Of a stretch of 64,000 bases of DNA, positions 23,842-46,808 are shown piece by piece. The stretch covers positions 5,458-69,457 of the forward strand of contig CAZEBU010000002.1 in assembly GCA_964510435.1 (NCBI GenBank). Direction: 5' to 3'. The translations under genes were made by a program, and so were the position numbers. Position 1 is the first letter of the stretch, and every line of letters starts with the position of its first letter. The notes below the pieces were generated by a model. It had not been told where the DNA came from. It ran no database searches and saw only the letters and a program-made list of their open reading frames with translations. The stretch is from an uncultured Candidatus Saccharibacteria bacterium (GTDB lineage Bacteria; Patescibacteriota; WWE3; UBA101185; UBA10185).

Positions 23842-23878
23842 ATTATATCTTGCTACGCTCGATGCGTCACTTTGTGAC
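23842..23878 (-). promoter_or_regulatory. Promoter P2. On the minus strand it reads AAAGTGACG -35, 17-nt spacer, TATAAT, 9 nt, then the ATG of wzx. The -35 lies inside the dyad GTCACtttGTGAC.
   Basis: Plus strand attata is at 23842-23847 and cgtcac at 23865-23870. The same architecture and the 16-mer GTCACTTTRTGACTAA recur at 36405-36420. Confidence 0.45.
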
Positions 23879-23894
23879 TAATCTAGTTTTGGGA

Positions 23895-26018
23895 TTAATT
23901 TACTGTTACCGTGCCTAAATACATGCTTCGGGTTCTTATTTTATTTCCCATACCTACAAATAAAAGATACTCTCCCGAATCAAGGAATTCAGGGGCAACC
24001 ACCTCAACACTCTCAAAATAATATCTGTTTTTTTCCCACTCCTCAGGCCTTTTTAAGGAAAAAGAGGGTAGATTAGCTAATTGATAAACTTCACCTGTTT
24101 CGCGGTTAACAAATGAGGTAAACATGAGATAGTCCTCTAAAGAAGTGTCCTTTTTAGATCCACTACCCCATCGGTGATAAACAATGTCAATTTTCTTGCT
24201 AATTCCTTTCTCAAAAACTTTGGGAATTTCGTAATCAACCACATTTACTCCTTGGAAAAATTCATAATCAAACTTGCCATCATAACGAAATATTTCTTGT
24301 ATAGGTAAAAGGGTTTCTTTATCATGTGGCCCTACTTTTTCGAAAACAAAAAAGTTCCCACAGCCGATTTTCAGTTCGTAATCTTCGCTTTTGATAACTT
24401 TCTCCACCACGTCCCTGATAATTTCCACGTCTATGTCCAAAATTGTGGTTATTTTTCTAGCAAAGACATCTATAATAAGGTAATCTGCCTCGTTATAAAG
24501 TGCCGGGAAAATGGCATACGTTTCTCTTTTAGCTAGGTGAGCGCCAAATGAATCTGAGCCGGAAACCGAAGCCCCGTCCGGTATCATTTTAACAATTTTT
24601 AATGCACACTCGCGATCTTTATCCTCCAGCTCTGTTAAACGCACAACTTCTCCTGTTGTCAGGTCTTTTTTGATAATTCCCTTGTCTGTCTTGGCAAAAA
24701 CTCGGGAAACGATTCTCTTCTGAAATGCCTGAGAAAGCCACAAATAAACCGGATTGTTGTAATAATGCATGGTAGTCAGGCTGAAAACAAAAACAAGCAG
24801 CGAAAACACCACTACGGTGTGTTTCTTTTTGATGTACTTCCGGAAAATATTCGAAAAATAGCCAATGGTCAATATTGTCGCGATGAACAAAACGGGAATG
24901 ATCATGGATATTCTATGATTGGTTATCTCCGCAGTACCGATACCTCCAGCAGAGGTCATAAAATTAATAATTAGATCCGGAAAAGCCATCGCCAAGGCTA
25001 AGGGGTGAGCAAAAGGCAGAAAAGCCAACGGCTCAAAAGTTCTACGAAAATTCTCCACTTTATCCCCTCCAAAGAAGACGCTCACCGATCTATCGGGCAT
25101 CAAAACTATATTTTTGGCTATTTCCAAATATGAATCACCAAATTCCTCATACCTATTAAGAAAATAATTGGGTAGGGCCACATCCCTCACGGTTGATCCC
25201 TGAATTCCCAAAGATTCGGCAAACTTTAAATAACCTTCCACCCTATATGAAGAATAGGCTGGAATAATTACAAAAAATGAAAGGAAAAACCAAACGGCAC
25301 TTACTAAAATCATGCTTGATCCCAGCTTGCCTGTTTTTGAAGAAAGCATACTTTTTAGATCCGGGTTTTCTTCATTCCTTAACAAAATGATAAATACCCC
25401 AAACATAAAGATATACAAGGGTACCTGCTCTTTTCCCATCATGGTAATTATTAAAAACACCCAAAAAAGAATCAGCGAGTTCTTATTGAGTGTGTTTTTC
25501 CGGTAATTTTTTTCGAAAATATAAAAGGCCGCTAAGAAAAACGGGATGACCGCCGTAACCCCATGAAAACCAGACCAAGCTGTTATATAACCTATGGAAG
25601 GATTTACCAAATAGGCTGTAGCTAGTAAAAAGGCAGCAAATTTTGATTGCAAATGAAGCTTAGCTATCGCATAAACCAAAAATGACGAAAAAATGACCAA
25701 TATTAACTGCGAGACCACCAAAGTCATAGCGTGTGGAAACAATTTAAAAATAGGTACAAAGAGATATAAAACAGGATCAACATGACTCATAGCCCACCTC
25801 GGTAAATTAGTCCCAAAATAATCAGTTAAGTATAGTCCTCTTCCTTGGCCGGCATTCCAAACCATTTGTGTCATATTCCCTAGATCAAATTTGCCGTAGT
25901 CAAAATTGCTATATCTAAAGAAATTTATCTTCAATGTTGCCGCCAACATTACCATGGAAAATAAAAATAACAAAACCAAAAAACCATGCTTTTTCATAAA
26001 AATAAAAATCTTTTGCAT
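23895..26018 (-). CDS. DUF2079-family membrane protein (predicted GT-C-like) with a large C-terminal extracytoplasmic domain
   Basis: The N-terminus FFRYSNFDYGKFDLGNMTQMVWNAGQGRGLY...SHVDPVLYLFVP matches the DUF2079 signature. Length is 707 aa. Confidence 0.6.
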   Translation of the reverse strand: MQKIFIFMKKHGFLVLLFLFSMVMLAATLKINFFRYSNFDYGKFDLGNMTQMVWNAGQGRGLYLTDYFGTNLPRWAMSHVDPVLYLFVPIFKLFPHAMTLVVSQLILVIFSSFLVYAIAKLHLQSKFAAFLLATAYLVNPSIGYITAWSGFHGVTAVIPFFLAAFYIFEKNYRKNTLNKNSLILFWVFLIITMMGKEQVPLYIFMFGVFIILLRNEENPDLKSMLSSKTGKLGSSMILVSAVWFFLSFFVIIPAYSSYRVEGYLKFAESLGIQGSTVRDVALPNYFLNRYEEFGDSYLEIAKNIVLMPDRSVSVFFGGDKVENFRRTFEPLAFLPFAHPLALAMAFPDLIINFMTSAGGIGTAEITNHRISMIIPVLFIATILTIGYFSNIFRKYIKKKHTVVVFSLLVFVFSLTTMHYYNNPVYLWLSQAFQKRIVSRVFAKTDKGIIKKDLTTGEVVRLTELEDKDRECALKIVKMIPDGASVSGSDSFGAHLAKRETYAIFPALYNEADYLIIDVFARKITTILDIDVEIIRDVVEKVIKSEDYELKIGCGNFFVFEKVGPHDKETLLPIQEIFRYDGKFDYEFFQGVNVVDYEIPKVFEKGISKKIDIVYHRWGSGSKKDTSLEDYLMFTSFVNRETGEVYQLANLPSFSLKRPEEWEKNRYYFESVEVVAPEFLDSGEYLLFVGMGNKIRTRSMYLGTVTVN

Positions 26019-26019
26019 C

Positions 26020-26724
26020 TTAGTCTAAGAATCTATATCTCAGTAAAGTTAATAACGCTGACAAACCATCTTTCCAGGTAATCTTTTTACCTTCAGAATG
26101 AGTTCTCCCTTTATAAGAAATGGGTACTTCCTTTATTCTCATCTTTGCTTTAAGTATCTTTGCCGTAATTTCCGGCTCAAAATTAAACCCCTTAGACTTG
26201 ATGTTTATTTTCCTAATAAAATCCCCCGGCATTAATTTGTAACAAGTTTCCATGTCGGTCAGCAAGACACCAAATAAAATATTGGTCACTAGGGTAAGAA
26301 GTTTATTCCCCACATAATGCAGATTAGTCATATCCTCATAGTTACCGGAAAACCTTGAACCATAGATCACATCCACATCTTCTTCTTCTAAAACCCTCAG
26401 CAATTTAAGATAGTCGTTGGGTTCATACTCCAGGTCTGCATCCTGCACGATAACGTAATCTCCGGTGGTGTTTTTAAAACCTTCCTTTAGTGTGTCCCCT
26501 TTTCCGGAGTTTTCACTTTTGTAGTAGATCTTCAATTGAGGATCTTTTTTAAAAAGTTCTCTTAAAATATCCCGTGTGCCATCGTTGGAAAAGTCATCAA
26601 TAAGAATAATTTCCTTGGTAATTTTTCCTAGATCAACCTTTTTTACTTTAGCCAACAATTCTAAAACAGTTTTCTTCTCGTTAAAAACAGGTATAACAAT
26701 GGATAATTTTTTAACATGATGCAT
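26020..26724 (-). CDS. GT2 glycosyltransferase, Dpm1-like polyprenyl-phosphate sugar synthase (soluble, 234 aa)
   Basis: LSIVIPVFNEKKTV...ILIDDFSNDGTRDIL and VQDADLEYEP are present. Confidence 0.8.
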   Translation of the reverse strand: MHHVKKLSIVIPVFNEKKTVLELLAKVKKVDLGKITKEIILIDDFSNDGTRDILRELFKKDPQLKIYYKSENSGKGDTLKEGFKNTTGDYVIVQDADLEYEPNDYLKLLRVLEEEDVDVIYGSRFSGNYEDMTNLHYVGNKLLTLVTNILFGVLLTDMETCYKLMPGDFIRKINIKSKGFNFEPEITAKILKAKMRIKEVPISYKGRTHSEGKKITWKDGLSALLTLLRYRFLD

Positions 26725-26726
26725 GA

Positions 26727-28262
26727 TTAGTCCACAAATTTCAAAATTTTCGTAAAAAACTCGGTACCTCTGATAGTATATCTGAATTCTTTTACCTCTT
26801 CTAAATGATCAACTTTCCGGGCATCAAAATCCATGGTGGGATTGTGCTCATTAGTGATCATAACGTAATCCAGGTTTTTCTCTGATAAAACATCATAGGT
26901 CCTTCCCACCCTAGCATCCATATTAAGATAAATTCCGGTAAGGTCGTCACCAGTTTGCCGGCGGTTTAAATACCAGTCTGAGACACTGCTCACATCGTTA
27001 TAAGCTACCCTACCCTGTAAATTTTTTGTCACATAAAGATTGGCGTCTATAACAGCTTTAAATATGTCTTTGTGAAGTGAAATAGAAGCGTACGACCAAA
27101 TAATTAACGACAAAATTAAAGTAGCCATGAACCAGGTATACTTCTTGAAATAAATAAAACTGAAATTAGCTATCTGCAACAGTATAGCTGCGTACAACAA
27201 CTGCTTATCCAAGATCAAGAATTGCAATCTCAAAAAGTATTGTGATAACAAATAAACCATAAATAACAAGGGCAGAGATAGGGTAATTTTAAACGAAAGG
27301 ATCCTATCTTCATGAAAATATTGGTAAATTGACATGGCCAAAGGAATGATCATAAGAGGAATTATGGGAGTAAATAATCTAGGAATAGCGGCGGGCCAAA
27401 TTAAAGCTAAGGTTAATTCTAAGATTATAAAGATACCCAAAGCTAAGTTTGTTGACAATAATCGTTTTAGCTTCCCATGTTTGCCAAAAACAAAAAAGAA
27501 GGCTGAGGTAAAACCAAAAAGATACAGTAAGGAAGCAAGATAGATCACAACCATACGCACATCATAAGCCCTGCCGCTTGGCTCCTCTAAATAGCTCGAG
27601 GTAAGGGGATTCCTGTACAAAAACCAAGGCATCATCACCAGAAGAAAAGTGATAAAAAGAACCGCCGCCTGCTTGATCTTTTCAGGCTTAAAACCCTTAA
27701 GCAACATACCCAAACCTAGAGATGCGCCCAAAAGATACCCTTCAAACCTCATCAGTGAAGCTAAACCTACAACTAGACCCAGCAGAGCTATTTTCCGGTA
27801 ATTTAAGTTTCCTTGCCATTTCCGATAAAGATAAAAAAGTAAGATTACCAAAGCGGTAAAAGGCAGGTCTGCCATAATCCGTATTGACCAGTAGAGTAAA
27901 ACCGGATTAAAAGTAAATAATAGTAAAGCCAGATCCTTAGTGCCTTTTTCCAGACTATAAGTCTCCAGTAATTTTTTAAATAGTAAAAAGGCGGCCAGAC
28001 TGAAAACAAACATTTCCACCCTACCCCAAAGCGCCTGATCCACATTTTCAGGTCTAAGGGCTAAAAGTAATGAAAACAAGGGTTGCCTCTTCTCATCTTC
28101 GGGGTACTCTCCCTGCCTGATAAACTCTGAGGCTCTCAATATGCGGTAGCTATCCCCCCACTCAGCATAATTAATGTTAAAGAGCAGTAGGTGGGTAACA
28201 ACAAAGATCCAAAATAATTTATTGGAGGTAATTTTCTTTAACACGCTTGTATATTCCCTCAA
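26727..28262 (-). CDS. GT-C-type membrane glycosyltransferase (GT39/GT83-like)
   Basis: The N-terminal polytopic region has an acidic first-loop motif (YAEWGDSYRILRASEF..YPEDE). The C-terminal ~130 aa are soluble. Length is 511 aa. Confidence 0.6.
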   Translation of the reverse strand: MREYTSVLKKITSNKLFWIFVVTHLLLFNINYAEWGDSYRILRASEFIRQGEYPEDEKRQPLFSLLLALRPENVDQALWGRVEMFVFSLAAFLLFKKLLETYSLEKGTKDLALLLFTFNPVLLYWSIRIMADLPFTALVILLFYLYRKWQGNLNYRKIALLGLVVGLASLMRFEGYLLGASLGLGMLLKGFKPEKIKQAAVLFITFLLVMMPWFLYRNPLTSSYLEEPSGRAYDVRMVVIYLASLLYLFGFTSAFFFVFGKHGKLKRLLSTNLALGIFIILELTLALIWPAAIPRLFTPIIPLMIIPLAMSIYQYFHEDRILSFKITLSLPLLFMVYLLSQYFLRLQFLILDKQLLYAAILLQIANFSFIYFKKYTWFMATLILSLIIWSYASISLHKDIFKAVIDANLYVTKNLQGRVAYNDVSSVSDWYLNRRQTGDDLTGIYLNMDARVGRTYDVLSEKNLDYVMITNEHNPTMDFDARKVDHLEEVKEFRYTIRGTEFFTKILKFVD

Positions 28263-29415: not shown

Positions 29416-30638
29416 GCCAACACCTCCTTGATAATTTCCTCATAACTATCCAGCATTTTGGTAGTAGTAAACCTTTCCTTGGCAATTTTTAGAGAATTCT
29501 CACTAAATTCCTGGCTAACCTTTTTGTTATTAATTATATGTAACATTTTCTCTTTAAATAACTCTATATTACCTTTTTCTACCAAGTAACCGGTTTCTTC
29601 GTTTACCAATGCATCTTTTACTCCTCCCGCATCATAGGCTACTACAGGCAGTCCCGAAAACATGGCCTCAATAAGCACCATAGGTAAACCCTCAAACCTT
29701 TTTGTAGGCAGGATAAATAACCCGTATTCCTTATTCTTATAATATTTTTCGATCAATTTATTGTAGGATGCAATTTTACCCACTAAATTAACATGATCCC
29801 TTAGATTGGGGTGAAATAACACCTCTTCTCTTAATTTCTCCAGAAGGTCTCCTGAGCCCAGCAGATCTATTTGCACAGTAGAAAACTCTTTTTCCTTAAA
29901 TATAGTTAGGATGTCATTAACTCCCTTTGATGCAATTATCTGACCTACATATAAAACCTTACTTCCTCTTGGTAAATTATGCGGTTGAAAAAAAGCCTTC
30001 TCATCAACCCCATTATGAATTACCACTACTTTGTCTTCTAAAATGAAGGTTTCTTCAATAAGAGCGGTGCGCACATAATTTGAAACCGCTACCACCTTAT
30101 CTGATCCGTGCACAAAATCCCTTTGTCTTCTAAAAAAGTTTTTTAGAATAAAGCCGGTATTTTTCAAGAACAGAAAAAGGTCTTTTGGAAAGTGTGCGTT
30201 GGTAAGAAAAGTTTTATACTCGCCAATGATCGTACCGTGAGAAATAGAAATTACTCTAATTTCCAGATCCCTCTTTTTTTTAATGATGCCTAAACCTGCA
30301 GAGCTTTGTGCTAAAGCTATATGGAAAACTTCTTTTTGATGAAATTTGTTAAACTCCTGCACAGAGCGATTTATCCAATTATTTTTTTGCCAAGAGCCAA
30401 AAAAACCAAGTAGTGGACCCATGCGGTAAACACAATCTACAAAAACATACTTGACCCCATTTTCATGAGCTTCATCTAGCGTTAAGTTCCATTTTGGGGA
30501 AAAAACAATTAATTCATGCCCTCTGGAAGCTAAACCCTCACACAATACTTTGTTTTGAGTTTCCAGCCCACCGTAGTCTTTATGCAGAGTGGTTTTTTTC
30601 GCAAAGACTGCGATTTTCATAAGGAAATTATACCTCAC
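29412..30638 (-). CDS. GT4-family glycosyltransferase
   Basis: PTKRFEGLPMVLIEAMFSGLPVVAYDAGGVKDAL is present. Length is 408 aa. There is a 4-nt overlap with the neighbour. Confidence 0.85.
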   Translation of the reverse strand: MRYNFLMKIAVFAKKTTLHKDYGGLETQNKVLCEGLASRGHELIVFSPKWNLTLDEAHENGVKYVFVDCVYRMGPLLGFFGSWQKNNWINRSVQEFNKFHQKEVFHIALAQSSAGLGIIKKKRDLEIRVISISHGTIIGEYKTFLTNAHFPKDLFLFLKNTGFILKNFFRRQRDFVHGSDKVVAVSNYVRTALIEETFILEDKVVVIHNGVDEKAFFQPHNLPRGSKVLYVGQIIASKGVNDILTIFKEKEFSTVQIDLLGSGDLLEKLREEVLFHPNLRDHVNLVGKIASYNKLIEKYYKNKEYGLFILPTKRFEGLPMVLIEAMFSGLPVVAYDAGGVKDALVNEETGYLVEKGNIELFKEKMLHIINNKKVSQEFSENSLKIAKERFTTTKMLDSYEEIIKEVLA

Positions 30639-33209: not shown

Positions 33210-33224
33210 AATAACTCCTCAAGT

Positions 33225-33980: not shown

Positions 33981-34009
33981 AGTTTATGCTTACATATTTT
34001 ACAAATAAT

Positions 34010-35128
34010 TTAATCCTTTTTCCAAATAACCCGGCTATAGACCGTATAATTCCAAATTAATCCTACTAAAATACCAATAAAAAACGCTGCATAAGCTACT
34101 GGTGTAGTATCGCCAAAGTTGCCAATAGAAAATTTAATGAGCCAAGTCCTAAATATTATTGGAATATATGAGGAAATAAAATAGAGCGCAAAACTTGTTA
34201 CTCTCTTTTTCGTGCCGGTTATTTTTCTCTTTCGAAAAGACCACAGATCGTTAAGGGTATAAGTGGTAAGCATGCCGGCAAATCCTGAGACGGCACTAGC
34301 AGTGGTTGAACCTAAAGGGGTCAGCCTTAAGAGAGTGAAAAGTCCGCTATCAATAAAAAGGCCGGCAAATCCTACAAAAATAAATTTTATAAAGCTTTTG
34401 CTATCCTGATACCTCAAAAGTATGATTACCCTCAGAGAATCAAGCATATTTTCCCTCTCCATTTTTGAATTTCCCCTATCTCTTAAACCAAATTTTATGG
34501 GTACCTCAACGATCTTGGCCCCAAGACGGTGCATTTTAAATAAAAGATCCATTTTGTAAGCGAATCCACTGGAATTAACTTCATCAAGGTTAATGCGGTC
34601 TACAAACCCTTTTACCCTGGAAATTTTATAACCCGTTGTGAAATCGTTGACACTAAATATACCCAAAACCACCTTAGTAAAAATATTCCCGGCTAAACTT
34701 ATAAACTTTCTATAAAACGCCCATTCCTTTGGTATACTTCCACCTTTAATATAACGTGAACCAATAACATAATCTGCACCTTTATCTAAGGCGGCCACTA
34801 ATTTTGATAGATCCTTGGGATCGTGCTGAAAATCTGCATCCATCTCTACTAAAGCTTCCGGGTGAAGATCATGCAAAGCGTATTTGAATCCATACACATA
34901 GGCGTCCCCTAATCCCACCTTTTCTTTTTTCGAAAGTAAATGTACGCTGGCATGCTTCTCTGACAACCTTCTAACTACGTTCCCTGTTCCATCCGGAGAA
35001 CTGTCATCTACTACCAATATCTCAAACTGATGTTGCGGGATCTTATTGAACTCATTCAAAAGCATACCAATCAGACGCCTGATATTATCCGCTTCATTAT
35101 ATGTAGGAATGATCACTACTATCTTCAT
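34010..35128 (-). CDS. Polyprenyl-phosphate mannosyl/glycosyl-transferase: a GT2 catalytic domain fused to a C-terminal GtrA-like 4-TM domain
   Basis: IVVIIPTYNEADNI...ILVVDDSSPDGTG and EMDADFQHDP are present. The C-terminal ~120 aa are hydrophobic (FIFVGFAGLFIDSGLFTLL...), as in Ppm1/GtrB-type enzymes. Confidence 0.8.
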   Translation of the reverse strand: MKIVVIIPTYNEADNIRRLIGMLLNEFNKIPQHQFEILVVDDSSPDGTGNVVRRLSEKHASVHLLSKKEKVGLGDAYVYGFKYALHDLHPEALVEMDADFQHDPKDLSKLVAALDKGADYVIGSRYIKGGSIPKEWAFYRKFISLAGNIFTKVVLGIFSVNDFTTGYKISRVKGFVDRINLDEVNSSGFAYKMDLLFKMHRLGAKIVEVPIKFGLRDRGNSKMERENMLDSLRVIILLRYQDSKSFIKFIFVGFAGLFIDSGLFTLLRLTPLGSTTASAVSGFAGMLTTYTLNDLWSFRKRKITGTKKRVTSFALYFISSYIPIIFRTWLIKFSIGNFGDTTPVAYAAFFIGILVGLIWNYTVYSRVIWKKD

Positions 35129-35140
35129 AGCTTGTAAATC

Positions 35141-35398
35141 TTAGATACTAAGTGCAGTTAAAACAAGGAGAAAAACAAAAAAACCTATGAGAATATATTC
35201 TAAAGCTATTTGAAAGTCAAATCTACCTTCGAGTATGTGATGGATTATTCCCCAAAGTACATAAAATACAGCTGCCAAGGCCGTAATAATTATCCTCAGC
35301 TGTTTATCATTACCCACATAAAAAAACAATGCCACAAAGGTAGTGATTCCCAGCAAAATAACAGTGTATTCAACTAGCTTATAACTTTTAAACCTCAT
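35141..35398 (-). CDS. Small 2-3-TM membrane protein (85 aa), unknown function
   Basis: The sequence is entirely hydrophobic. Its start overlaps the stop of the CAP gene as ATGA, consistent with translational coupling in the operon. Confidence 0.45.
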   Translation of the reverse strand: MRFKSYKLVEYTVILLGITTFVALFFYVGNDKQLRIIITALAAVFYVLWGIIHHILEGRFDFQIALEYILIGFFVFLLVLTALSI

Positions 35399-36375
35399 AA
35401 AATGACTCCCGGAAAGACAGAAAGCATCACGCTAACAATGACCACAAGTAGAAATACCAAATGCGCCAAGGTATGGCCGGTTACTTTTAAAATACCGTGT
35501 CTTTTTGAATACCAAATATCTATACCTAGTAAAGTGGTGATAAATCCTCCAAAGGTGATAGTGATCGATCTGGTAACATTGCGAACGTCTATGGCCGGTT
35601 TCGTTTCTACGACTTCTTTGGATACTAGCAAGGCTAATTGCTTGTCTTCAATGATTTCCTTAACGGTCTCTCCTTCTACACTGGTAACGGCCTCAGGCAC
35701 AGTCGGGGGTACAACCTCAAAGACAGCTTCTTCTCCAGTGTCCACTAGCCGATTGGCAGCGGCAACTTGCGTAGGTACTCTAGAACGACCAAACATTTGC
35801 ACTACCAATGTTGTTTCATATCCCTCCAAAACTCCATTTACAATGGCAAAGCCAATGTCATCGTAATTTGCACTAAGTAAATTTTCTCTGTGCGTGGGGG
35901 ATTCGTACCAGGCCTCTACAACTTCCTTAGAGTTATAAAAATTTTTAGCCAAATTTTCTCCTGCATAAGTGTAATCGTACCCCTCTGAGAGAATAAAATC
36001 CCATGGCTTAGTGCCCAAAGGAGAGACGTGAGCCCAATATTCATACGCGTACATATCCTGAGCTTTTCTTTCGGCAGCCTTGCTTAATGCGTGGTTTAGT
36101 TGTAACGGTTTTAGACCCAATTTTGATCTTCTTTCGTTGGTGTATCTCAAAAGATCATCCGTGCTAATGTTAGAGGCATATCCTAATATCCCCGGCGCCA
36201 AAATAGGTAATATGCGCAGCATGATAACCAAAAGAACTAAGATCAAACTGTAGGTGACAAAGGCTCCCTGAGTTAATAATTTTGCTCTTGTACGATTTGT
36301 TTCGTGGGGAACGAAATGATAAATAAAACGATATTTCTGTATTGAATCCGAGTCTTTTGGCAGACGTGCTTTCAT
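35395..36375 (-). CDS. Membrane-anchored CAP/SCP/PR-1-like domain protein (YkwD-like)
   Basis: The CAP domain region is YAYEYWAHVSPLGTKPW...YAGENLAKNF..AWYESPTHRENLLSANYDDIGFAIVNG. It has an N-terminal signal-anchor helix. Confidence 0.75.
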   Translation of the reverse strand: MKARLPKDSDSIQKYRFIYHFVPHETNRTRAKLLTQGAFVTYSLILVLLVIMLRILPILAPGILGYASNISTDDLLRYTNERRSKLGLKPLQLNHALSKAAERKAQDMYAYEYWAHVSPLGTKPWDFILSEGYDYTYAGENLAKNFYNSKEVVEAWYESPTHRENLLSANYDDIGFAIVNGVLEGYETTLVVQMFGRSRVPTQVAAANRLVDTGEEAVFEVVPPTVPEAVTSVEGETVKEIIEDKQLALLVSKEVVETKPAIDVRNVTRSITITFGGFITTLLGIDIWYSKRHGILKVTGHTLAHLVFLLVVIVSVMLSVFPGVIL

Positions 36376-36425: not shown

Positions 36426-36428
36426 ACA

Positions 36429-37046: not shown

Positions 37047-37055
37047 GACCATAAA

Positions 37056-37331
37056 CTAGAAACCGGAAAGAATATCCTTTAATTCATCTACATTAACGCT
37101 GCTTCTTAATTGCTTCTCCACCTTTTTATCTGCGGCTTTCATGGCTTTATTTATCAAATCTTTTAGTTCCTTTTGTTCTTCGCTATCAATAATAATTGTC
37201 TCGATTTTTTTATCACCCCTAACAACTACCTTAATGCCTCTTTTTTCTTCGGCAGCGTATATTTGCTCCAATTGCTTTTGCATCTGGGACTTAGCTCTTT
37301 GTGCCTTGTATAAACCTTTTGGATTTATCAT
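37056..37331 (-). CDS. YbaB/EbfC-family nucleoid-associated protein (tentative)
   Basis: Length is 91 aa. The pattern KSQMQKQLEQ ... IKVVVRGDKKIETIIIDSEE...LKDLINKAMKAADKKVEK fits the YbaB profile (KQAQQMQ...v.G..kv.si.idp......LeDLi.aA.NdA). Confidence 0.45.
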   Translation of the reverse strand: MINPKGLYKAQRAKSQMQKQLEQIYAAEEKRGIKVVVRGDKKIETIIIDSEEQKELKDLINKAMKAADKKVEKQLRSSVNVDELKDILSGF

Positions 37332-37335
37332 ATTC

Positions 37336-38592: not shown

Positions 38593-38593
38593 T

Positions 38594-39043: not shown

Positions 39044-39044
39044 C

Positions 39045-40407: not shown

Positions 40408-40409
40408 AA

Positions 40410-40808: not shown

Positions 40809-40810
40809 AT

Positions 40811-40999: not shown

Positions 41000-41036
41000 A
41001 CTAGCTTGTTAATATATCACTTTCATGAATAATTTT

Positions 41037-41606: not shown

Positions 41607-41919
41607 TTACCTCATTGGTAACTTTATTAACTCGGTATTTTTTTCCGTCAACTACCTTAATACCAAGCCTTATAGGCCGGCCAAGTTGATCATCAAAGTA
41701 CATCACATTTGAAACGCTGATCGGTGCTTCCTTTTTTATAATACCGCCCTCCTTAGATACCGCTCCCGGCTTAACGTGTCGCTTTACTATGTTAACCCCT
41801 TCCACAACCACCCTACTTGTCTGCAAATTAACCCTAAGCACACTACCAATCTTCCCTAAATCTTTCCCGGAGATCACTTTTACCTTGTCACCCTTTTTGA
41901 TCTTCATAATTTTTACCAA
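41596..41919 (-). CDS. rplX: 50S ribosomal protein L24
   Basis: KIKKGDKVKVISGKDLGK shows the KOW motif. Confidence 0.95.
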   Translation of the reverse strand: MVKIMKIKKGDKVKVISGKDLGKIGSVLRVNLQTSRVVVEGVNIVKRHVKPGAVSKEGGIIKKEAPISVSNVMYFDDQLGRPIRLGIKVVDGKKYRVNKVTNEVIDK

Positions 41920-42281
41920 ACCTCCTTAGCTAAAGAGGCAATTTTTAAGAAACCCTCATCTCTTATTTCCCTAGCAATAGGACCAAACACACGAGTTCCA
42001 ACCATGTTCTTATCCTTACTTATCACCACAGCCGCATTATCATCAAACCTTATGTAACTGCCGTCTTTCCTTCTAACTTCTTTTCTTGTCCTGACGATCA
42101 AGGCACGAATAATTGTATGGTCTTTTAGCGCTCCCGCCGCGGTTGCACCGCTTACCACCGCGCTAACCGTGTCACCTACGGTAGCAAATCTCCTACCTGA
42201 ACTCCCGGGAATACCAATCAGTTTTAGTTTTTTGGCTCCCGAATTATCCGCTACATTTAGTACTGTACCTACTTGCACCAT
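41913..42281 (-). CDS. rplN: 50S ribosomal protein L14
   Basis: The N-terminus is MVQVGTVLNVADNSGAKK. Confidence 0.95.
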   Translation of the reverse strand: MVQVGTVLNVADNSGAKKLKLIGIPGSSGRRFATVGDTVSAVVSGATAAGALKDHTIIRALIVRTRKEVRRKDGSYIRFDDNAAVVISKDKNMVGTRVFGPIAREIRDEGFLKIASLAKEVW

Positions 42282-42283
42282 AA

Positions 42284-42529
42284 TTACCCCTTATCCTTTG
42301 ATAAATCCTTTATAACTTTCCAGGTTACGGATTTACTATAAGGGGGCACTTCCTCAATGAGCACCGTATCACCCGTTTTAACTCCTAATTCATCCCTGGC
42401 CATAAATTTCTTTGTTCCTCTAACTAATTTCTTATATACAGGATGTCTTTTTTGTACCTTAACTGATACAACAACCGTTTTTTCCATTCTGTCTGAAATA
42501 ACTGTTCCTTCTAACTTTTTTTTAGGCAT
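42284..42529 (-). CDS. rpsQ: 30S ribosomal protein S17
   Basis: KLEGTVISDRMEKTVVVSV is present. Confidence 0.95.
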   Translation of the reverse strand: MPKKKLEGTVISDRMEKTVVVSVKVQKRHPVYKKLVRGTKKFMARDELGVKTGDTVLIEEVPPYSKSVTWKVIKDLSKDKG

Positions 42530-42734
42530 TTTTTGTATCCTCCAAAAATCTCTTCTCCGAAATAATTGTTTTTAGACGAGCAATATCTTTACGAAAATAC
42601 TTCATTTTCGAAACATTCTTATCTTTGCCTTTAAAAAGATCGCTCATCTGCTTTTGTAAATTTACTACTTGCTTAGAAAGTATTTCGTTTAATTCATTTA
42701 TGTTTTTGGTTCTTAAATCTCTTGCTTTTAACAT
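42522..42734 (-). CDS. rpmC: 50S ribosomal protein L29
   Basis: Length is 70 aa. The N-terminus is MLKARDLRTKNINELNE. Confidence 0.9.
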   Translation of the reverse strand: MLKARDLRTKNINELNEILSKQVVNLQKQMSDLFKGKDKNVSKMKYFRKDIARLKTIISEKRFLEDTKNA

Positions 42735-42741
42735 AATTATT

Positions 42742-43149
42742 TTATTCCCTCATCACAAACCTTGTTTTAAGTGGCAATTTATCAGCAGCTCTTCTAAAAG
42801 CTGCCCTGGCAATGTCCTCAGTTACGCCTGATATTTCAAAAATTATCTTTCCCGGTTTTACCACGGCTGCAAAGTGATCCGGAGGTGATTTCCCACTACC
42901 CATTCTTGTTTCCTGAGGTTTTTTAGAAACTGACTTATGCGGGAATACTCTAATCCATAACTTACCACCTCTTTTTGTCTTATGACTTATCGCTTTTCTT
43001 GCTGCCTCGATCTGTCTTGAAGTAAGCAAACCCCTATCTTCCGACTTTAATGCGTATTCACCAAATGAGACTGTGCTACCTCTAATTGCTACACCCTTAT
43101 TAGTACCTCTTTGATGTTTTCTATATTTCACTTTCTTCGGCATTAACAT
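42742..43149 (-). CDS. rplP: 50S ribosomal protein L16
   Basis: The N-terminus is [15 protein letters not shown]. Confidence 0.95.
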
Positions 43150-43182
43150 ATATGTACACTCCTAGGCTTTTAAAAAAACCTC

Positions 43183-43815
43183 TTACAATTCTATTTCTCC
43201 TTTGTAGATCCAAACTTTTACCCCCACTGTTCCGTACAACAAATTACAATTCACTTGAGCATAATCGATATCTGCTCTTAAAGTCTGCAAAGGAACTGGG
43301 CCGTTTTTATACTTTTCGGTACGGGCAATTGTGTTGCTGCCACTTAGCAACCCTTTAACTTGGATCTTAATTCCCTTCACACCCTTATCCATGGCAGTAT
43401 TTATAGCATTGTTAGCTATCCTTCTAGCTGGTATCCGCCTTTTTAGCTGCCTACAGATGTATTGGGCTACTAACTCGGCTTCTATCTCAGGTGTCTTAAT
43501 TTCCTCTACGCTAATTTTTATTTTGGAATCAGTCATTTTTTTTAACTCTTTCTCTGTGGCCTCTATTCCAGATCCTGCTCTTCCAATAACTATACCCGGC
43601 TTTGATACCTTAACTTGAATTCTTAATTCATTGACTGCCCTTTCTATCTCTACACTCTTAAGACCTGCCATATCAAGCCTTTTTTTAAGTAATTCACGAA
43701 TTTTATAATCTTCGTAAACATTCTTGGCATAACCTTTCTTATCCGAAAACCATCTGGATTTCCAATCTTTGGTTATTCCTAATCTAAATCCATAAGGATG
43801 TATCTTTTGACCCAT
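43183..43815 (-). CDS. rpsC: 30S ribosomal protein S3
   Basis: MGQKIHPYGFRLGITKDW shows the KH domain. Confidence 0.95.
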   Translation of the reverse strand: MGQKIHPYGFRLGITKDWKSRWFSDKKGYAKNVYEDYKIRELLKKRLDMAGLKSVEIERAVNELRIQVKVSKPGIVIGRAGSGIEATEKELKKMTDSKIKISVEEIKTPEIEAELVAQYICRQLKRRIPARRIANNAINTAMDKGVKGIKIQVKGLLSGSNTIARTEKYKNGPVPLQTLRADIDYAQVNCNLLYGTVGVKVWIYKGEIEL

Positions 43816-43816
43816 G

Positions 43817-44212
43817 CTACTTTTTCTTGGTTACCTTTCTAATCCGTCCTTTGCTTTCTACGGGCTCTACCTTAGTGGACGACAAACCAATTACTATATG
43901 ACTATTCCTCTTAAGAATAGGGTCAAATCTTCCCTTTGACCCCATACGACCGAATTTGTATGTTCTTGCTTGATTTGCATATACTTCGGAGAGATAGAGC
44001 TTTTCCGGATCCAAATTATAGTTATTTTTTGCATTAGATTCCGCTGACTTTAAGACTTTTAAGACCATTTTTGCGGCCTTTGTATGATCAAAAGTGAGAA
44101 GAAGCTTAGCATCGTGCAGAGACCTGTCTTTAATCATATCTATAACAATACCCACCTTTTTAGGTGATATTCTGGCCATTTTGTGTTTTGCATAAACTTC
44201 CGCTTTACCCAT
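43817..44212 (-). CDS. rplV: 50S ribosomal protein L22
   Basis: MARISPKKVGIVIDMI is present. The likely start is MGKAEVYAK at 44212. The track ORF extends to 44272 into rpsS. Confidence 0.9.
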   Translation of the reverse strand: MGKAEVYAKHKMARISPKKVGIVIDMIKDRSLHDAKLLLTFDHTKAAKMVLKVLKSAESNAKNNYNLDPEKLYLSEVYANQARTYKFGRMGSKGRFDPILKRNSHIVIGLSSTKVEPVESKGRIRKVTKKK

Positions 44213-44228
44213 AAGATCCCAATAACAA

Positions 44229-44492
44229 TTACTTTTTTGAGGAGTGACCCCTAAACACTCTGGTAGGTGCAAATTCCCCTAGCTTGTGACCCACCATTGA
44301 TTCAGTTATATACACGGCAACATGTTTTCTTCCGTCATGCACTTCAAACGTCAACCCAACCATCTCAGGAGTGATAGTTGATCTTCTCGACCAAGTCTTT
44401 ATGGGAGTTTTCTTTCCTGACTCCAGGACTCTATTAATTTTTTTCTGTAGCTTTTCGTCTACATAAATACCTTTTTTCAGTGATCTACCCAT
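44229..44492 (-). CDS. rpsS: 30S ribosomal protein S19
   Basis: The N-terminus is [15 protein letters not shown]. Confidence 0.95.
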
Positions 44493-44497
44493 ATTAT

Positions 44498-45322
44498 TTA
44501 CCTCCTTTTAGTCTTTCTTTTTACAATATACTTATTTGTACTTTTTCTTCTTCGAGTTTTTTTACCTCTAGTTTTTTTACCCCAAGGAGTCTTTGGAGAA
44601 GGCATACCAATACCAGTATCCGAATAAGAACCTCCGTGAGGATGGGCATCAGTCCCCATAGCTACTCCACGTACCGCAGGTCTCCAGCCCAAGTGCCTTT
44701 TCTTTCCTGCCTTACCCACTCTGATATGTCTATGGTCAGCATTACTCAATCCACCAATTGTGGCATAACAAGCATCAATGATCATCTTTACCTCGCCGCT
44801 GGGCAGTTTGACGCTTGCATATTTTCCCTCTTTAGCCATAATTACTGCTGAATTACCCGCTCCCCGCGCAATTTGTCCTCCTCTACCGGGATTAATTTCG
44901 ACGTTGTGTATTTTAGTACTAAGTGGGATTTCACTCAAGGGAAGTGCATTCCCCACCTCCAAGGGAGCTTTCTTACCGGCCGTGATCTCCATACCTACTC
45001 TTAATCCCTCCGGTGATAATATATATCTTTTTTCTCCGTCGGCATAATTAATAAGAGCGATATTACAACCCCTGTTTGGATCGTGTTCGATAGTTGCCAC
45101 CTTGCCGGGAATATTCCTTTTATTTCTCTTAAAATCTATCACCCTATACTGTTTTTTTGCTCCTCTCTGTCTGTGCCTGGTAGATATTCTTCCCTTGTTT
45201 CTTCCCACCGGCCCTTTAAGTGATTTGGTGAGCTTTTTATTAGACTTAACCTTATCCACCTCTCTCACCAAAGTCTTCCTAAACCTTATTCCCGGACTTG
45301 TGGGTTTGAACGTCTTGATCAT
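44498..45322 (-). CDS. rplB: 50S ribosomal protein L2
   Basis: Length is 274 aa with a C-terminal GGGEGK-like basic tail. Confidence 0.95.
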
Positions 45323-45324
45323 TT

Positions 45325-45612
45325 TTATTTACCTACAAGATCAATTTTCTGACCTTCTTTCAACTTAACAACCACTTTTTTCCATCCCCTCGTCTTAATA
45401 AAATTTCTGGTGCCAACTATCCTTCTCTTTTTTCCCGGCATTATCATGGTGTTTACTTTAACTACATCGACATCATAAAGTCTTTTCACTTCCAAAGCTA
45501 TAGCCCCCTTGGATGCTTTTTTGTTTGCCCTAAAGACATATTTTGACTCCGGCTCTAAAGCCAGGGTTTTTTCAGTCACTATTGGTTTTATAACTGTTTC
45601 ACTTAATCTCAT
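45325..45612 (-). CDS. rplW: 50S ribosomal protein L23
   Basis: Length is 95 aa and VIKPIVTEKT is present. Confidence 0.9.
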   Translation of the reverse strand: MRLSETVIKPIVTEKTLALEPESKYVFRANKKASKGAIALEVKRLYDVDVVKVNTMIMPGKKRRIVGTRNFIKTRGWKKVVVKLKEGQKIDLVGK

Positions 45613-46229
45613 TTGATCCTTTCCTGCAAACTAATCAGTGATTCCTCAGCAAATAGTACATTCTCACTGGAAATTAGATCAAAAGCATTGATGTTTTGAG
45701 CTAACGAACACTCCAGCTGTTTGACATTGGCGGTACTTTTTAAAACGTTCGCGTCACTCTTCTCTAAAACCACCAATGTCTTACCTGTTAAATTAAGGTT
45801 TTCTATCAGCTCTTTCATTTTTTTGGTGCTTGGTTTATTGAGTTTTACATGATCAACAACAAATATTTTTTTCCCCACATACTTCTCTGATAAAGCACTG
45901 ATCATAGTGGCTTTTTTCATTTTCTTGGGCATGGATAATTGCCAAGATTTAGGTTTTGGTCCGTGTGCGATACCTCCATGAACCCATAAAGGGCTTCTCC
46001 TCGAGCCGTGTCTGGCTCTGCCAGTACCTTTTTGCTTCCAAGGCTTCTTGCCTCCCCCAGACACCTCAGCCCTTGTCTTTGTAGCGGAAGTTCCTTGCCT
46101 TTTATTCGAACGGTAGACATGTATATATTGAGTTAACAGGTCACGGTTTACTTTTTGACCAAACACTTTTTTATCAAGTGTCACTTCTGAAACTTTTTTT
46201 CCTGTTTTATCAACTACGTCAACTTTCAT
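45609..46229 (-). CDS. rplD: 50S ribosomal protein L4
   Basis: Length is 206 aa. It is located between rplC and rplW. Confidence 0.9.
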   Translation of the reverse strand: MKVDVVDKTGKKVSEVTLDKKVFGQKVNRDLLTQYIHVYRSNKRQGTSATKTRAEVSGGGKKPWKQKGTGRARHGSRRSPLWVHGGIAHGPKPKSWQLSMPKKMKKATMISALSEKYVGKKIFVVDHVKLNKPSTKKMKELIENLNLTGKTLVVLEKSDANVLKSTANVKQLECSLAQNINAFDLISSENVLFAEESLISLQERIK

Positions 46230-46231
46230 AC

Positions 46232-46660
46232 CTAGTCCACAAGTAAAACTTTAACTTTAGAGTTTACTGCTCCTGGTATAGGGCCGGAAACCATAAACTC
46301 ACTGCCGTCTTTTGATACGTTAACAATTTTTAAACCCTTAATGGTCACATTCTTATTTCCGTGTCTGCCCGCCATTTTTTTACCTTTAAAAACACGACCG
46401 GGCGTCTGAGATCCTATAGACCCTGCTGCTCTTGGTTTATTAGATTGCCCATGCGTTGCTCGACCCCCTTTAAAACCCCACTTTTTCATTACTCCAGTGA
46501 AGCCTTTTCCTTTTGATCTTCCCGTAACGGCAACCTCTTTATCTAAATAATCACTTTCTATCCCGTCATCCGTTTTAATGATGGTCACAGGAACAACCTT
46601 ACCGTTCCCCAAAAATATCTGACTCATCTTTACTTTTTTTCCTTTTATAACTTTATTCAT
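46232..46660 (-). CDS. rplC: 50S ribosomal protein L3, reduced form (142 aa, versus about 210 aa typically)
   Basis: The N-terminus is KGKKVKMSQIFLGNGKVVPVTII. The core GKGFTGVMKKWGFKGGRATHGQS...GRVFKGKKMAGRHGN is conserved. About 65 aa of the usual N-terminal-domain insertion are absent. Confidence 0.9.
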   Translation of the reverse strand: MNKVIKGKKVKMSQIFLGNGKVVPVTIIKTDDGIESDYLDKEVAVTGRSKGKGFTGVMKKWGFKGGRATHGQSNKPRAAGSIGSQTPGRVFKGKKMAGRHGNKNVTIKGLKIVNVSKDGSEFMVSGPIPGAVNSKVKVLLVD

Positions 46661-46691
46661 CTTATTACCGCGTTATTCGTTTATACTCCAC

Positions 46692-46716
46692 AAAAAAAGC
46701 GCCCTTGGGGCGCCCC
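46692..46716 (-). terminator. GC-rich hairpin plus U7 (intrinsic terminator / attenuator) about 30 nt upstream of the rplC start codon
   Basis: The minus strand reads GGGGCGCCCCAAGGGCGC followed by TTTTTTT, with stem GCGCCC/GGGCGC. This stretch is unusually GC-rich for this genome. Confidence 0.55.
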
Positions 46717-46776
46717 ATATCGCAAGCTTTTTCCCAAGACATTAATAATCATGTACCTTTTTCAGTCACAATCTGC

Positions 46777-46808
46777 ATTATATCTTACTTTGCTCGATAA
46801 ATCACTTC
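46777..46808 (-). promoter_or_regulatory. Promoter-like P3 inside the rpsJ-rplC spacer. On the minus strand it reads GAAGTGATT -35, 17-nt spacer, TATAAT, then about 65 nt to the terminator hairpin.
   Basis: Plus strand attata is at 46777-46782 and aatcac at 46800-46805. It shares the TCA-N3-AGTGAY upstream element with P1 and P2. Confidence 0.4.

Follow-up and report, generated by a model that had tools for sequence, protein, structure and literature searches.

Genes and promoter sites in the window

The window is a 64-kb stretch of genomic DNA, assigned to the candidate division WWE3 of the Patescibacteria (CPR) from the names of its homologues. Three sites on its minus strand share a common architecture, and direct reading of that strand confirmed the sequences written down in the first-pass annotation. 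P1, TTAGTCATAAAGTGACA-N17-TATAAT-N9-ATG (-35 at 36413-36408, -10 at 36390-36385, ATG at 36375), occupies the gap between adk and the gene of a CAP-domain protein of the cysteine-rich secretory protein family (35395..36375, minus strand; 326 aa; Pfam PF00188, E=3.6e-19). P2, TTAGTCACAAAGTGACG-N17-TATAAT-N9-ATG (-35 at 23870-23865, -10 at 23847-23842, ATG at 23832), occupies the gap between a DUF2079 gene and wzx, which encodes a Wzx-like oligosaccharide flippase (Polysacc_synt; 22363..23832, minus strand; 489 aa; Pfam PF13440/PF01943). P3, TTTATCAAGAAGTGATT-N17-TATAAT (-35 at 46805-46800, -10 at 46782-46777), is located inside the 198-nt rpsJ-rplC spacer. Pfam bears out the gene identities proposed earlier: a CAP-domain protein, a Wzx-like flippase and S10/L3.

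Each site is embedded in a module (P1, 36384..36432; P2, 23841..23889; P3, 46776..46824; all on the minus strand) that comprises a dyad RTCA-N5-TGAY, whose right arm constitutes a GTGAC-type -35 element, a 17-bp spacer and then AGATATAAT. The dyad is GTCATAAAGTGAC in P1 (36421-36409), the perfect GTCAC-AAA-GTGAC in P2 (23878-23866) and ATCA-AGAAG-TGAT in P3 (46813-46801). The -35 hexamers GTGACA, GTGACG and GTGATT of P1, P2 and P3 match TTGACA at 5/6, 4/6 and 3/6 positions; the three sites are therefore ordinary sigma-70-like promoters and no exotic class, which corrects the first-pass description of the -35 as GTGAC-like rather than TTGACA. P1 scores 11/12 and P2 10/12 against the sigma-70 consensus, and they are the best or near-best coding-strand matches in 20-40 kb. 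The stretch between TATAAT and ATG reads tttcttgtt before CAP and gacttagtt before wzx.

A direct-repeat family around P2

The proposal that the sites belong to one motif family was upheld by an unbiased repeat search of the whole window, in which P1-P3 made up the largest family of direct repeats (D1), with a length of 49 nt. The P2 copy is 67% identical to that of P1 and 76% identical to that of P3. The pattern AGTGAY-N18-TATAAT, with at most one mismatch, occurs five times (three exact) against 0.9 expected, a number reached in 0/100 shuffles. The three module copies are the whole sample from these 64 kb. With the gap left free, GTGAY-Nx-TATAAT is found three times at x=18 and never at any other gap from 12 to 24.

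P2 and P3 have ATCGAGCnnAGnAAGATATAAT in common (expected count 0.00), being identical at 19/22 of its positions and different at the three n positions, and P1 and P2 share a 16-mer for which 1.35 occurrences are expected even with three mismatches allowed, so the exact repeat is far rarer. In 50-mer queries the family members match each other at 34-37/50 positions against a background maximum of 27-31/50, whereas P1 and P3 match at 27/50, which is at background level; P2 thus links the other two. Upstream of the -10, the three promoters agree pairwise at 28, 30 and 21 of 43 positions; when their counterparts in either of two other genomes are compared among themselves, 9-16/43 positions agree. 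The background-level identity of P1 and P3 would suit a chance likeness among AT-rich, near-consensus promoters that form no family, as would the lack of enrichment of promoter-like hexamer pairs over shuffles (49 vs 56.5; 42 vs 45.7). The blind repeat search, the specificity for gap 18, the 22-nt P2/P3 pattern and the rarity of the P1/P2 16-mer nevertheless leave this explanation with next to no probability, and we regard it as effectively refuted.

A possible further copy, degenerate and marginal, is located 34 nt upstream of P3 (46810..46859, minus strand) with the dyad TATTAC-GAA-GTAATA. It retains 18/24 family-invariant positions (~0.44 expected at that score) and is identical to P2 and P3 at 29-30/50 positions against a background maximum of 27-29.

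Orthologous promoters in WWE3 relatives

The orthologous sites were compared in 4-10 WWE3 relatives (CAP, 10; Wzx, 4; rplC leader, 8). All of them retain a -10 box (TATAAT/TACAAT) at the corresponding site (10/10, 4/4 and 8/8, respectively). In the CAP orthologues it is preceded by TGn in 10/10 and followed at N7-N10 by the ATG, with the exception of one locus (L024, N28). In the four Wzx orthologues, 7-9 nt separate TATAAT from the MKSLEKWQ start that they share, and the upstream gaps measure just 23-29 nt and contain no module element. The rplC-leader promoter appears in eight relatives as TTGnTATAATGC, with TGn in 8/8. With the -10 preserved in this way throughout the relatives examined, P1-P3 are very probably real, near-consensus promoters of the housekeeping type, and promoters have long stood at these three positions in WWE3 bacteria.

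By contrast, the upstream element described as conserved in the first-pass annotation is missing from the orthologous promoters, which keep the -10 and, at CAP and wzx, its short distance to the ATG (with the one exception). GTGAY-N18-TATAAT has no occurrence in 297 kb of WWE3 relatives, and a search for the extended motif in 185,579 GTDB species genomes returned six scattered matches in unrelated phyla, which is chance level (we estimate ~9 for a random 18.5-base pattern). The module is therefore a genome-specific promoter module, probably copied or homogenized.

The relatives' CAP and rplC-leader promoters are of the textbook extended -10 type (TGnTATAAT) with a poor -35, and their wzx promoters have a bare -10; across these relatives the best -35 match is 1-4/6, and the DNA upstream is unrelated. 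The window versions, which lack TGn and carry the -35 matches given above, are instead -35/-10 sigma-70 promoters with a 17-bp spacer. The promoter class has thus switched at orthologous promoters of one genome, via the same shared module; to our knowledge, such a switch through a shared module has no prior description.

Origin of the module

The explanation that we favor, with moderate confidence, is that three genome-specific copies of a ~49-bp module were placed by copying onto old WWE3 promoter positions, where two would yield near-leaderless CAP and wzx transcripts and the third would feed an attenuator of rplC. The module would have overwritten everything upstream of TATAAT, including TGn where the relatives have one, and supplied a -35 instead. 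Copying or gene conversion between promoters, that is, promoter reuse, is the most likely origin on present sequence data: the P2-P3 similarity runs through the 17-bp spacer, which points to copying and not to a short operator. As the copies are no more than 67-76% identical and P1 and P3 match at background level, convergence under a common constraint may also be a source of the likeness.

Reused and putatively mobile promoters (PMC3575422) offer a parallel, as highly similar promoters of one genome precede unrelated genes there too and are missing at the orthologous sites of relatives. The copies in the window differ from them in their short length (49 nt), in their identity of no more than 67-76%, and in having landed on, or converted, promoters that already existed, with the -10 aligned to the old one. 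The module copies show no sign of a transposase, of inverted repeats or of target duplications.

A rival reading, which builds on the operator suggested in the first-pass annotation, takes the dyad for the binding site of a dimeric regulator. This operator would overlap the -35 and place the CAP, wzx/glycosylation and rplC operons under common control. In P1, P2 and P3 alike the dyad keeps a constant distance from the -10 and overlaps the -35, so that a repressor bound there would compete with sigma, and its symmetry is maintained by paired changes (GTCA..TGAC in P1 and P2, ATCA..TGAT in P3, ATTAC..GTAAT in the marginal copy, with T..A at the third arm position). Such complementarity-preserving changes are, however, seen more typically in hairpins than in sites that a protein recognizes base by base, the similarity extends beyond the dyad into the spacer and the 5' flank as expected of copies, and the dyad is kept at no orthologous promoter and is missing from the 297 kb of WWE3 DNA.

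As for a candidate regulator, Pfam identifies no dedicated transcription factor encoded in the window, and a ybaB/ebfC gene, of a DNA-binding family, is conserved between secY and adk, adjoining P1 and two genes upstream of it. The DNA-binding specificity of YbaB/EbfC orthologues is said, in a study devoted to them, to differ among them. These proteins are described in the literature as nucleoid-associated. Borrelia EbfC binds GTnAC (PMC2665219), a site that both arms of the P2 dyad fit; P1 has one such arm and P3 none, and by our base-composition estimate GTnAC occurs by chance about every 300 bp. There is, moreover, no functional tie among the three gene sets, nor between glycosylation and ribosomal-protein control, and we consider a shared operator unlikely. 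The paired changes, G..C in P1 and P2 and A..T in P3, are unexplained by simple copying, and hint at selection on the dyad itself.

Probable near-leaderless transcription of CAP and wzx

The housekeeping-sigma RNA polymerase would bind the -35 and -10 and, from sigma-70 geometry, start ~7 nt past TATAAT. At CAP and wzx this start would fall 1-3 nt before the ATG, position 7 being the G of ...GTTATG at both; the mRNAs would therefore have no ribosome-binding leader and be translated leaderless or near-leaderless. The start codons are backed by N-termini whose residues stay conserved while their codons change synonymously, and by stops or gene ends directly upstream. In CAP, the start lies 9 nt past the P1 -10 box with an in-frame TAA 12 nt upstream, and homologues in WWE3/Patescibacteria show a query coverage of 97-100%. 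The Wzx homologues, mostly of 485-492 aa, show the same coverage. In both proteins conservation begins at residue 1 (MRSLEKWQ/MKSLEKWQ in Wzx; M[KR]A[RY] in CAP). Residue 16 of Wzx is Met in this genome only, which identifies the ATG upstream of it as the conserved start, and the NCBI copy of this protein (P0121) is annotated 15 codons short.

Since the short -10-to-ATG distance and the N-terminal conservation hold in the relatives, a 0-3-nt leader is the best reading of the CAP and wzx transcripts. The N9 spacing slightly exceeds the 6-8 nt typical for documented leaderless genes, and a leader of 2-3 nt is likelier than an mRNA that begins with the AUG itself. The earlier proposal of leaderless mRNAs for CAP and wzx is thus supported, with their conserved N7-N10 spacing; P3 is not leaderless and would drive a leader RNA. 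The missing Shine-Dalgarno sequence that it invoked is not diagnostic here: an SD-like core precedes just 15/47 ATG genes of the window, so its absence alone is no argument for leaderless translation.

Neither P1 nor P2 has a terminator upstream, and the genes lie close together in long co-directional arrays, so read-through transcripts are probably present as well. This arrangement and the weak SD use would also fit a reading in which the TATAAT boxes are unused, CAP and wzx are translated SD-less from read-through polycistronic mRNAs, and the module acts as RNA, for instance by forming a small intercistronic hairpin that signals RNA processing or stability; the dyad covaries like a stem and would allow a hairpin of 4-5 bp. 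Such a hairpin, of 4-5 bp and a triloop, is very weak, however, and TATAAT, usually with the TGn extension specific to RNA polymerase, stands at a fixed distance in 22/22 orthologous sites of the three sets while the flanks diverge. Downstream of the P3 box, a conserved leader begins at the distance expected of a transcription start. We know of no RNA-level role for TGnTATAAT and find this reading improbable, and we retain promoter-driven, near-leaderless transcription.

Near-leaderless mRNAs look general in this lineage, to judge from the distance between TATAAT and the first ATG of long open reading frames, which is most often 5-9 nt (about 35 cases, 20 of them in this range; the other bins mostly hold 0-1 cases each, and at most 3). 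The geometry recurs among the orthologues of CAP, Wzx, GT4 and radical-SAM. A GT4 glycosyltransferase gene (402 aa) has TATAAT-N6-ATG without the module (30618..30632, minus strand), at a start six codons downstream of the GTG chosen by the ORF finder, and five relatives have TATAAT-N6/7-ATG. A B12-binding radical-SAM gene (Pfam) is preceded by TTGACC-N17-TAGTCT-N9-ATG with a canonical -35 (13452..13492, minus strand); two relatives (L060, L061) conserve this promoter, and a third (L063) keeps the -10 and the spacing with a -35 that reads TTGTTC. TAAGAT-N9-ATG before a GT2/GtrA gene (35126..35143, minus strand), whose box overlaps the stop of a small DUF5656 open reading frame, is a weaker candidate, as coding may account for its conservation as TAATAT/TAAGAT-N9-ATG in 4/5 orthologues.

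In the 'group C' genomes of GeneMarkS-2, which comprise Actinobacteria and Deinococcus-Thermus, leaderless transcription is recognized by a Pribnow box that precedes the start codon by 6-8 nt (PMC6028130). The WWE3 genes resemble this group in that the -10 lies a few nucleotides before the ATG of genes with their own promoter, with no room for a ribosome-binding site, in that other genes of the same genome use SD, and in that automated annotation misplaces starts, as in the NCBI Wzx entry. They differ in lineage, in a box that is a full TATAAT, often TGn-extended, and not TANNNT, in a spacing of 6-10 nt with a mode of 9, so that a 1-3-nt leader is likely, and in that the promoters are mostly internal to long gene arrays and do not serve operon-first genes. 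A search of the accessible literature found no report of leaderless mRNAs in CPR/WWE3.

A putative leader RNA before rplC

Unlike P1 and P2, P3 is followed by a leader with a terminator in front of rplC. This putative leader RNA of ~80 nt (46690..46771, minus strand) is conserved in 10 WWE3 loci. It ends in a terminator hairpin, GGGGCGCC-CCAA-GGGCGC followed by T7 (46716-46690, minus strand), that is the RNAalifold consensus and the best terminator-like site in 40-60 kb. Two upstream boxes on the same strand, CTTGGG (46738-46733) and GCTT (46727-46724), can alternatively pair with CCCAAG (46709-46704) and GGGC (46715-46712), respectively. In an alignment of this antiterminator that was adjusted manually in view of the structure, 96/96 cells are paired, 6/10 pairs show double-sided changes, half of which come from one sequence (L021), and 0/500 shuffles score as high.

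The leader would thus adopt one of two folds, the intrinsic terminator or an antiterminator in which the 5' strand and apex of the terminator are sequestered. It is likely an attenuator of the rplC operon, gating entry into the ribosomal-protein genes from rplC to adk, with a ribosomal protein as the probable effector. Precedents are the leader of the E. coli S10 operon, which is subject to L4-mediated attenuation (PMC3616713), and the B. subtilis L20 leader, an attenuator (PMC1865079). Like these, the rplC leader would be a transcribed leader before a ribosomal-protein operon with alternative folds and an intrinsic terminator, so operon transcription needs read-through. This terminator/antiterminator leader is previously undescribed, and an Rfam search of it returned no match in sequence or structure. 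It differs from the S10 and L20 leaders in its small size, in its simple terminator/antiterminator pair and in its position after rpsJ and before rplC, with a promoter of its own.

Three promoters share an upstream module

Direct reading of the minus strand, with the coordinates re-verified, returned three promoter sites exactly as reported in the first-pass annotation. P1 (36385–36425) is TTAGTCATAAAGTGACA-N17-TATAAT-N9-ATG and precedes the gene of a CAP-domain protein, P2 (23842–23878) is TTAGTCACAAAGTGACG-N17-TATAAT-N9-ATG and precedes the gene of a Wzx-type flippase, and P3 (46777–46808) is TTTATCAAGAAGTGATT-N17-TATAAT and lies in the 198-nt gap from rpsJ to a short (142-aa) rplC. The gene assignments hold as well, and all three sites are intergenic and on the gene strand. 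Each has the layout of a sigma-70 promoter, a TATAAT −10 box and a TTGACA-like −35 box at a spacing of 17 ± 1 bp: P1 (GTGACA-17-TATAAT) matches the consensus at 11 of 12 positions, P2 (GTGACG-17-TATAAT) at 10 and P3 (GTGATT-17-TATAAT) at 9. P1 and P2 rank among the best matches of this type on the coding strand in 20–40 kb. With the −10 box also retained in relatives (see below), the three sites are very probably real promoters. The −35 region had been described as GTGAC-like rather than TTGACA; the GTGAC-like reading stands, but not a class apart from TTGACA, to which the three boxes match at 5/6, 4/6 and 3/6 positions. It is an ordinary −35 box with one base changed, and what is unusual is the approximately 30 further bases that the sites share. 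An alternative sigma factor is ruled out by the canonical TATAAT and by the −35 box of P1, which is one base off TTGACA, and a UP element by the lack of an A/T tract in the upstream part.

The recurrence of the three sites is not due to chance. The motif AGTGAY-N18-TATAAT has three exact matches in the window and five with at most one mismatch, against 0.9 expected. The pattern GTGAY-Nx-TATAAT, scanned over gaps of 12 to 24, is present only at x = 18, three times. P2 and P3 have ATCGAGCnnAGnAAGATATAAT in common (expected number 0.00). When the whole window was searched blind for repeats, the three sites came out as the first family, 49 nt in length, with 67% and 76% identity to P2, so that motif counts, gap scan and repeat search all bear out the recurrent family proposed earlier. 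The shared unit, termed here the module, comprises a dyad (RTCA-N5-TGAY) whose right arm is the −35 box, the 17-bp spacer and TATAAT. In queries with 50-mers its members match each other at 34–37 of 50 positions, the background ceiling being 27–31, and the kinship of P1 and P3 is visible only via P2. A possible further copy, degenerate and marginal, is found 34 nt upstream of P3. A fourth AGATATAAT, at 62905 (−), is antisense within a coding region and lacks the upstream element, and is attributed to chance; two 16-mer matches, at 4227 and 53369, are weak (three mismatches), lie in coding DNA and were discarded.

The −10 boxes are conserved in WWE3, the module is not

CAP, Wzx and L3 all have homologues that are named candidate division WWE3 or Patescibacteria. 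A SecY-based metagenome scan and exact-protein look-ups provided a comparison set of 25 WWE3 loci totalling 297 kb; more distant loci of the SecY scan (L022–L058), which have an L3 of normal length and a short rpsJ-rplC gap with GGAGG, were uninformative for this lineage. The exact CAP protein was found only on contigs of 1.4–2.3 kb, and contigs of this organism occur in GCA_006243175.1 and SRR6439359; one L3 protein (P0241) is 97% identical to that of the window. The gene order rpoB-rpoC-rpsL-rpsG-fusA-tuf-rpsJ, gap, rplC...secY-ybaB-adk-CAP-(DUF5656)-GT2..., glycosyltransferase cluster, DUF2079-wzx is conserved in WWE3.

A −10 box is retained at the orthologous place in every relative compared. 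Upstream of CAP (10/10), TGnTATAAT (TGcTACAAT in locus L021) stands 7–10 nt before an M[KR]A[RY] start, with the exception of locus L024 at 28 nt; upstream of wzx (4/4), TATAAT stands 7–9 nt before MKSLEKWQ or MRSLEKWQ; and the rplC leader (8/8) has TTGnTATAATGC (TGgTACAATGC in locus L069). At all three sites the window reads AGA at the place of an extended −10 element (TGn). The best −35 match of the relatives reaches only 1–4 of 6, and their upstream sequences are mutually unrelated. Of 43 upstream positions, the three promoters of the window share 28, 30 and 21 in pairwise comparison, whereas the same promoters within each of two other genomes share 9–16. The gap between DUF2079 and wzx measures 23–29 nt in the relatives and 62 nt in the window, the surplus being the module.

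The module motif has no occurrence in the 297 kb of WWE3 relatives, including all orthologous CAP, Wzx and rplC promoters. A search of 185,579 GTDB species genomes, among which the source genome is not included, for GTCAYAAAGTGAC-N18-TATAAT returned six scattered matches in unrelated phyla (Lachnospiraceae, Chitinophagaceae, Peptoniphilus and others), compared with about nine estimated by chance, and this chance level rules out a widespread conserved element. The orthologous upstream regions, which the first-pass annotation had singled out for comparison, thus keep the −10 box but lack the upstream element at every promoter. On this comparison, the promoter positions are old in WWE3 and the shared module is specific to one genome, in which a single module would have replaced all DNA upstream of a pre-existing −10 box at three promoters. 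Promoters of the extended −10 or bare −10 type would consequently have become −35/−10 promoters, an architecture rewritten inside one genome, which makes the case relevant to promoter evolution.

Copying would be the simplest origin of the module, because the likeness spans the spacer and the 5′ flank as well. The pattern resembles promoter reuse (PMC3575422), in which similar promoter DNA precedes non-homologous genes of one genome and is absent at orthologous sites, although 67–76% identity over 49 nt may not reach the threshold published for similarity. The insertion boundaries show neither terminal repeats nor target duplications, and the copies number three, perhaps four, in 64 kb. The likeness beyond the dyad also argues against the earlier suggestion that the dyad is an operator for a regulator acting on the three promoters. 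The dyad occupies the identical place in all of them (−43 to −31), and its symmetry survives through paired changes (G..C in P1 and P2, A..T in P3, T..A in the marginal copy), two points in favour of an operator. A candidate regulator is encoded next to P1, where the gene of YbaB/EbfC, the sole DNA-binding family found in the 64-kb window, is located; the Borrelia EbfC binds GTnAC (PMC2665219), which both arms of P2 fit. P1 contains only one GTnAC, however, and P3 none, the window encodes no other transcription factor, and the dyad is conserved in no relative, being absent at the orthologous promoters and in the 297 kb and matched at chance level in GTDB. We therefore consider an operator unlikely. 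The specific claim of co-ordinated control of glycosylation and ribosomal proteins, which if true would tie surface glycosylation and the secreted CAP protein to ribosomal-protein synthesis, is less probable still. Nothing links CAP or wzx to rplC. In every WWE3 locus examined, the ybaB/ebfC-family gene (37056–37331, −, in the window) is located between secY and adk, an unusual position at the end of a ribosomal-protein operon.

Start codons directly downstream of the −10 box

The −10 box precedes the start codon by 9 nt at CAP and wzx and, L024 (N28) excepted, by 7–10 nt in the orthologues. This geometry extends beyond the module. When TATAAT boxes in 361 kb of WWE3 DNA (the window and relatives) are paired with the first ATG of a long open reading frame, the distances peak sharply at 5–9 nt, with 20 of about 35 cases, other bins holding mostly 0–1 and at most 3; orthologous redundancy reduces this sample to three or four gene families plus singletons. 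A GT4 glycosyltransferase gene has TATAAT-N6-ATG at 30632–30618 (−), with N6 or N7 in five relatives, which would be a true leaderless geometry. The GTG chosen by the ORF finder for this gene, at 30638, overlaps the conserved TATAAT, and it is the ATG at 30620 that is conserved as the start. A radical-SAM gene shows TTGACC-N17-TAGTCT-N9-ATG, conserved in loci L060 and L061, with the −10 box and its spacing also kept in L063. Many start-adjacent −10 boxes carry the TGn extension, which is specific to RNA polymerase and speaks for a promoter function of these boxes over one in translation.

The start codons of CAP and wzx are secure. The N-termini of both proteins are conserved from residue 1, with synonymous changes at third positions, and the CAP ATG is preceded at 12 nt by a TAA in frame. 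The NCBI copy of Wzx (P0121, 474 aa) starts 15 codons short, at Met16, a residue that is not Met in any relative; the conserved N-terminus thus identifies the upstream ATG, at 9 nt from TATAAT, as the true start codon. Transcription usually starts 7 nt past the −10 box, and initiation at this distance at P1 and P2 would fall on the G of GTTATG, giving a predicted leader of 3 nt at CAP and wzx and of 0–1 nt in the N6–N8 relatives. The N9 spacing sits at the long end of the usual leaderless range. The absence of a Shine-Dalgarno sequence proves nothing by itself, because only 15 of the 47 ATG-start genes in the window have an SD-like core (at least 4 nt, 4–20 nt upstream), GGAGG-type sites being found mostly within the ribosomal-protein cluster. 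No terminator was found upstream of P1 or P2, so that read-through transcripts probably exist too.

Near-leaderless starts at CAP and wzx are thus likely, as had been proposed, on the strength of the N9 spacing and of the conserved spacing and N-termini. They are not a trait of the promoter family; rather, the short geometry is conserved and appears to be general in the WWE3 lineage. The geometry at P1, at P2 and in the relatives resembles the 'group C' pattern of GeneMarkS-2, which denotes leaderless transcription (PMC6028130). The literature that was searched contained no study of leaderless mRNAs from CPR bacteria. To our knowledge, there is hardly any experimental work on how transcription and translation begin in CPR/Patescibacteria, and the comparison provides evidence for strong −10 boxes set directly against start codons in WWE3. 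Gene callers would misplace such starts, as with the 15 codons of Wzx. The short Wzx annotation is likely a systematic mis-annotation of near-leaderless genes.

A candidate attenuator in the rplC leader

P3 differs from P1 and P2 in that it drives an rplC leader with a terminator. The best terminator-like site of 40–60 kb, GGGGCGCC-CCAA-GGGCGC followed by T7 (46716–46690, −), lies downstream of P3 and ends 30 nt before the rplC start. The leader of approximately 80 nt (46690–46771, −) is conserved in the rpsJ-rplC spacers of WWE3 loci L010, L018, L021, L024 and L064–L069. Ten WWE3 loci share the layout TATAATGC-N4-TGTG, an A-rich stretch, CTTGGGAATAGCT, 6–10 nt, a GC hairpin with a T-run, 5–70 nt and the rplC ATG. 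No conserved promoter was found between terminator and rplC in these ten loci, and the operon must consequently be transcribed by read-through.

In 10/10 sequences the CTTGGG box has its best antiparallel match in the terminator apex, with six of six pairs, and the pairing covaries: CTTGGG:CCCAAG in the window and L065, CTTGGA:TCCAAG in L010, CTTTGG:CCAAAG in L064 and CTAGGG:CCCTGG in L069. The adjoining GCUC pairs with GAGC of the 5′ strand of the terminator. MAFFT alignments of the leaders mis-registered the CTTGGG box, and an N-padded alignment was made by hand with the structure in mind; in this alignment all 96 of 96 cells of the two-helix antiterminator are paired, compared with 14–65% in slid controls. 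Changes on both sides occur in six of ten pairs (0.9 ± 0.9 in shuffles, none of 500 as high), half of these double changes being supplied by L021 alone. Terminator and antiterminator are mutually exclusive, which corresponds to a classical attenuator, and the WWE3 rplC leader would represent a newly recognised candidate of this kind.

Analogy with the S10/L4 leader of E. coli (PMC3616713) and the L20 leader of B. subtilis (PMC1865079) makes a ribosomal protein of the operon the likely effector. Ribosome-mediated attenuation is ruled out, as the 23-codon open reading frame of the window leader has no counterpart in the relatives and there is no conserved leader peptide. Rfam returned nothing for the whole window at the gathering score, and for the rpsJ-rplC spacer at E ≤ 10 only unrelated sub-threshold matches (best E = 0.93); homology to the E. 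coli S10 (L4) leader was thus not detected at the gathering score, with Rfam models that may not include the L4 leader. The sequence comparison points to a compact candidate attenuator before the main ribosomal-protein operon in a lineage whose ribosomes are reduced. Ribosomal protein L3 itself (46232–46660, −) has 142 aa and all WWE3 homologues have 129–176 aa, a lineage trait, where a typical bacterial L3 has about 210 aa.

Every part is of a kind already known from other systems, and it is the instances that are new; no known principle is overturned, and the value lies in concrete predictions for an uncultured phylum. A joint scheme, in which the ultra-small WWE3/CPR bacteria, with their very few transcription factors, routinely produce leaderless mRNAs from TGnTATAAT boxes set against start codons, the copied module carries the operator of a global regulator (possibly YbaB/EbfC) tying glycosylation and CAP to ribosomal-protein synthesis, and the leader, as a new class responsive to ribosomal proteins, additionally gates the ribosomal-protein operon, strikes us as improbable when all its parts are taken together.

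Other features of the loci

In the tuf-rpsJ gap of the window, a strong GC hairpin, AGGGCGCTGC-TAT-GCAGCGCCCT (47190–47216, −), lies just before the rpsJ start and is not followed by a T-run; it may serve in processing or stability, or act as a non-canonical terminator. In locus L069 an inserted PIN-domain gene pair (7509–8214) separates fusA from tuf, and the ribosomal-protein operon is interrupted between rplX and rplE by the insertion of a SpoU methylase (14865–15590). About 23 kb of the window (13000–36400, −) is occupied by co-directional glycosylation genes whose order is syntenic across WWE3, comprising many GT2 and GT4 glycosyltransferases, PMT_2-type membrane glycosyltransferases, two flippases, DUF2079 and an LPG_synthase_TM protein; the cluster of the relatives includes a UDP-glucose dehydrogenase. 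A putative 762-aa open reading frame with a TTG start and no Pfam match (9473–11761, +) and a minus-strand gene (8557–9594) overlap at the 5′ end of the latter.
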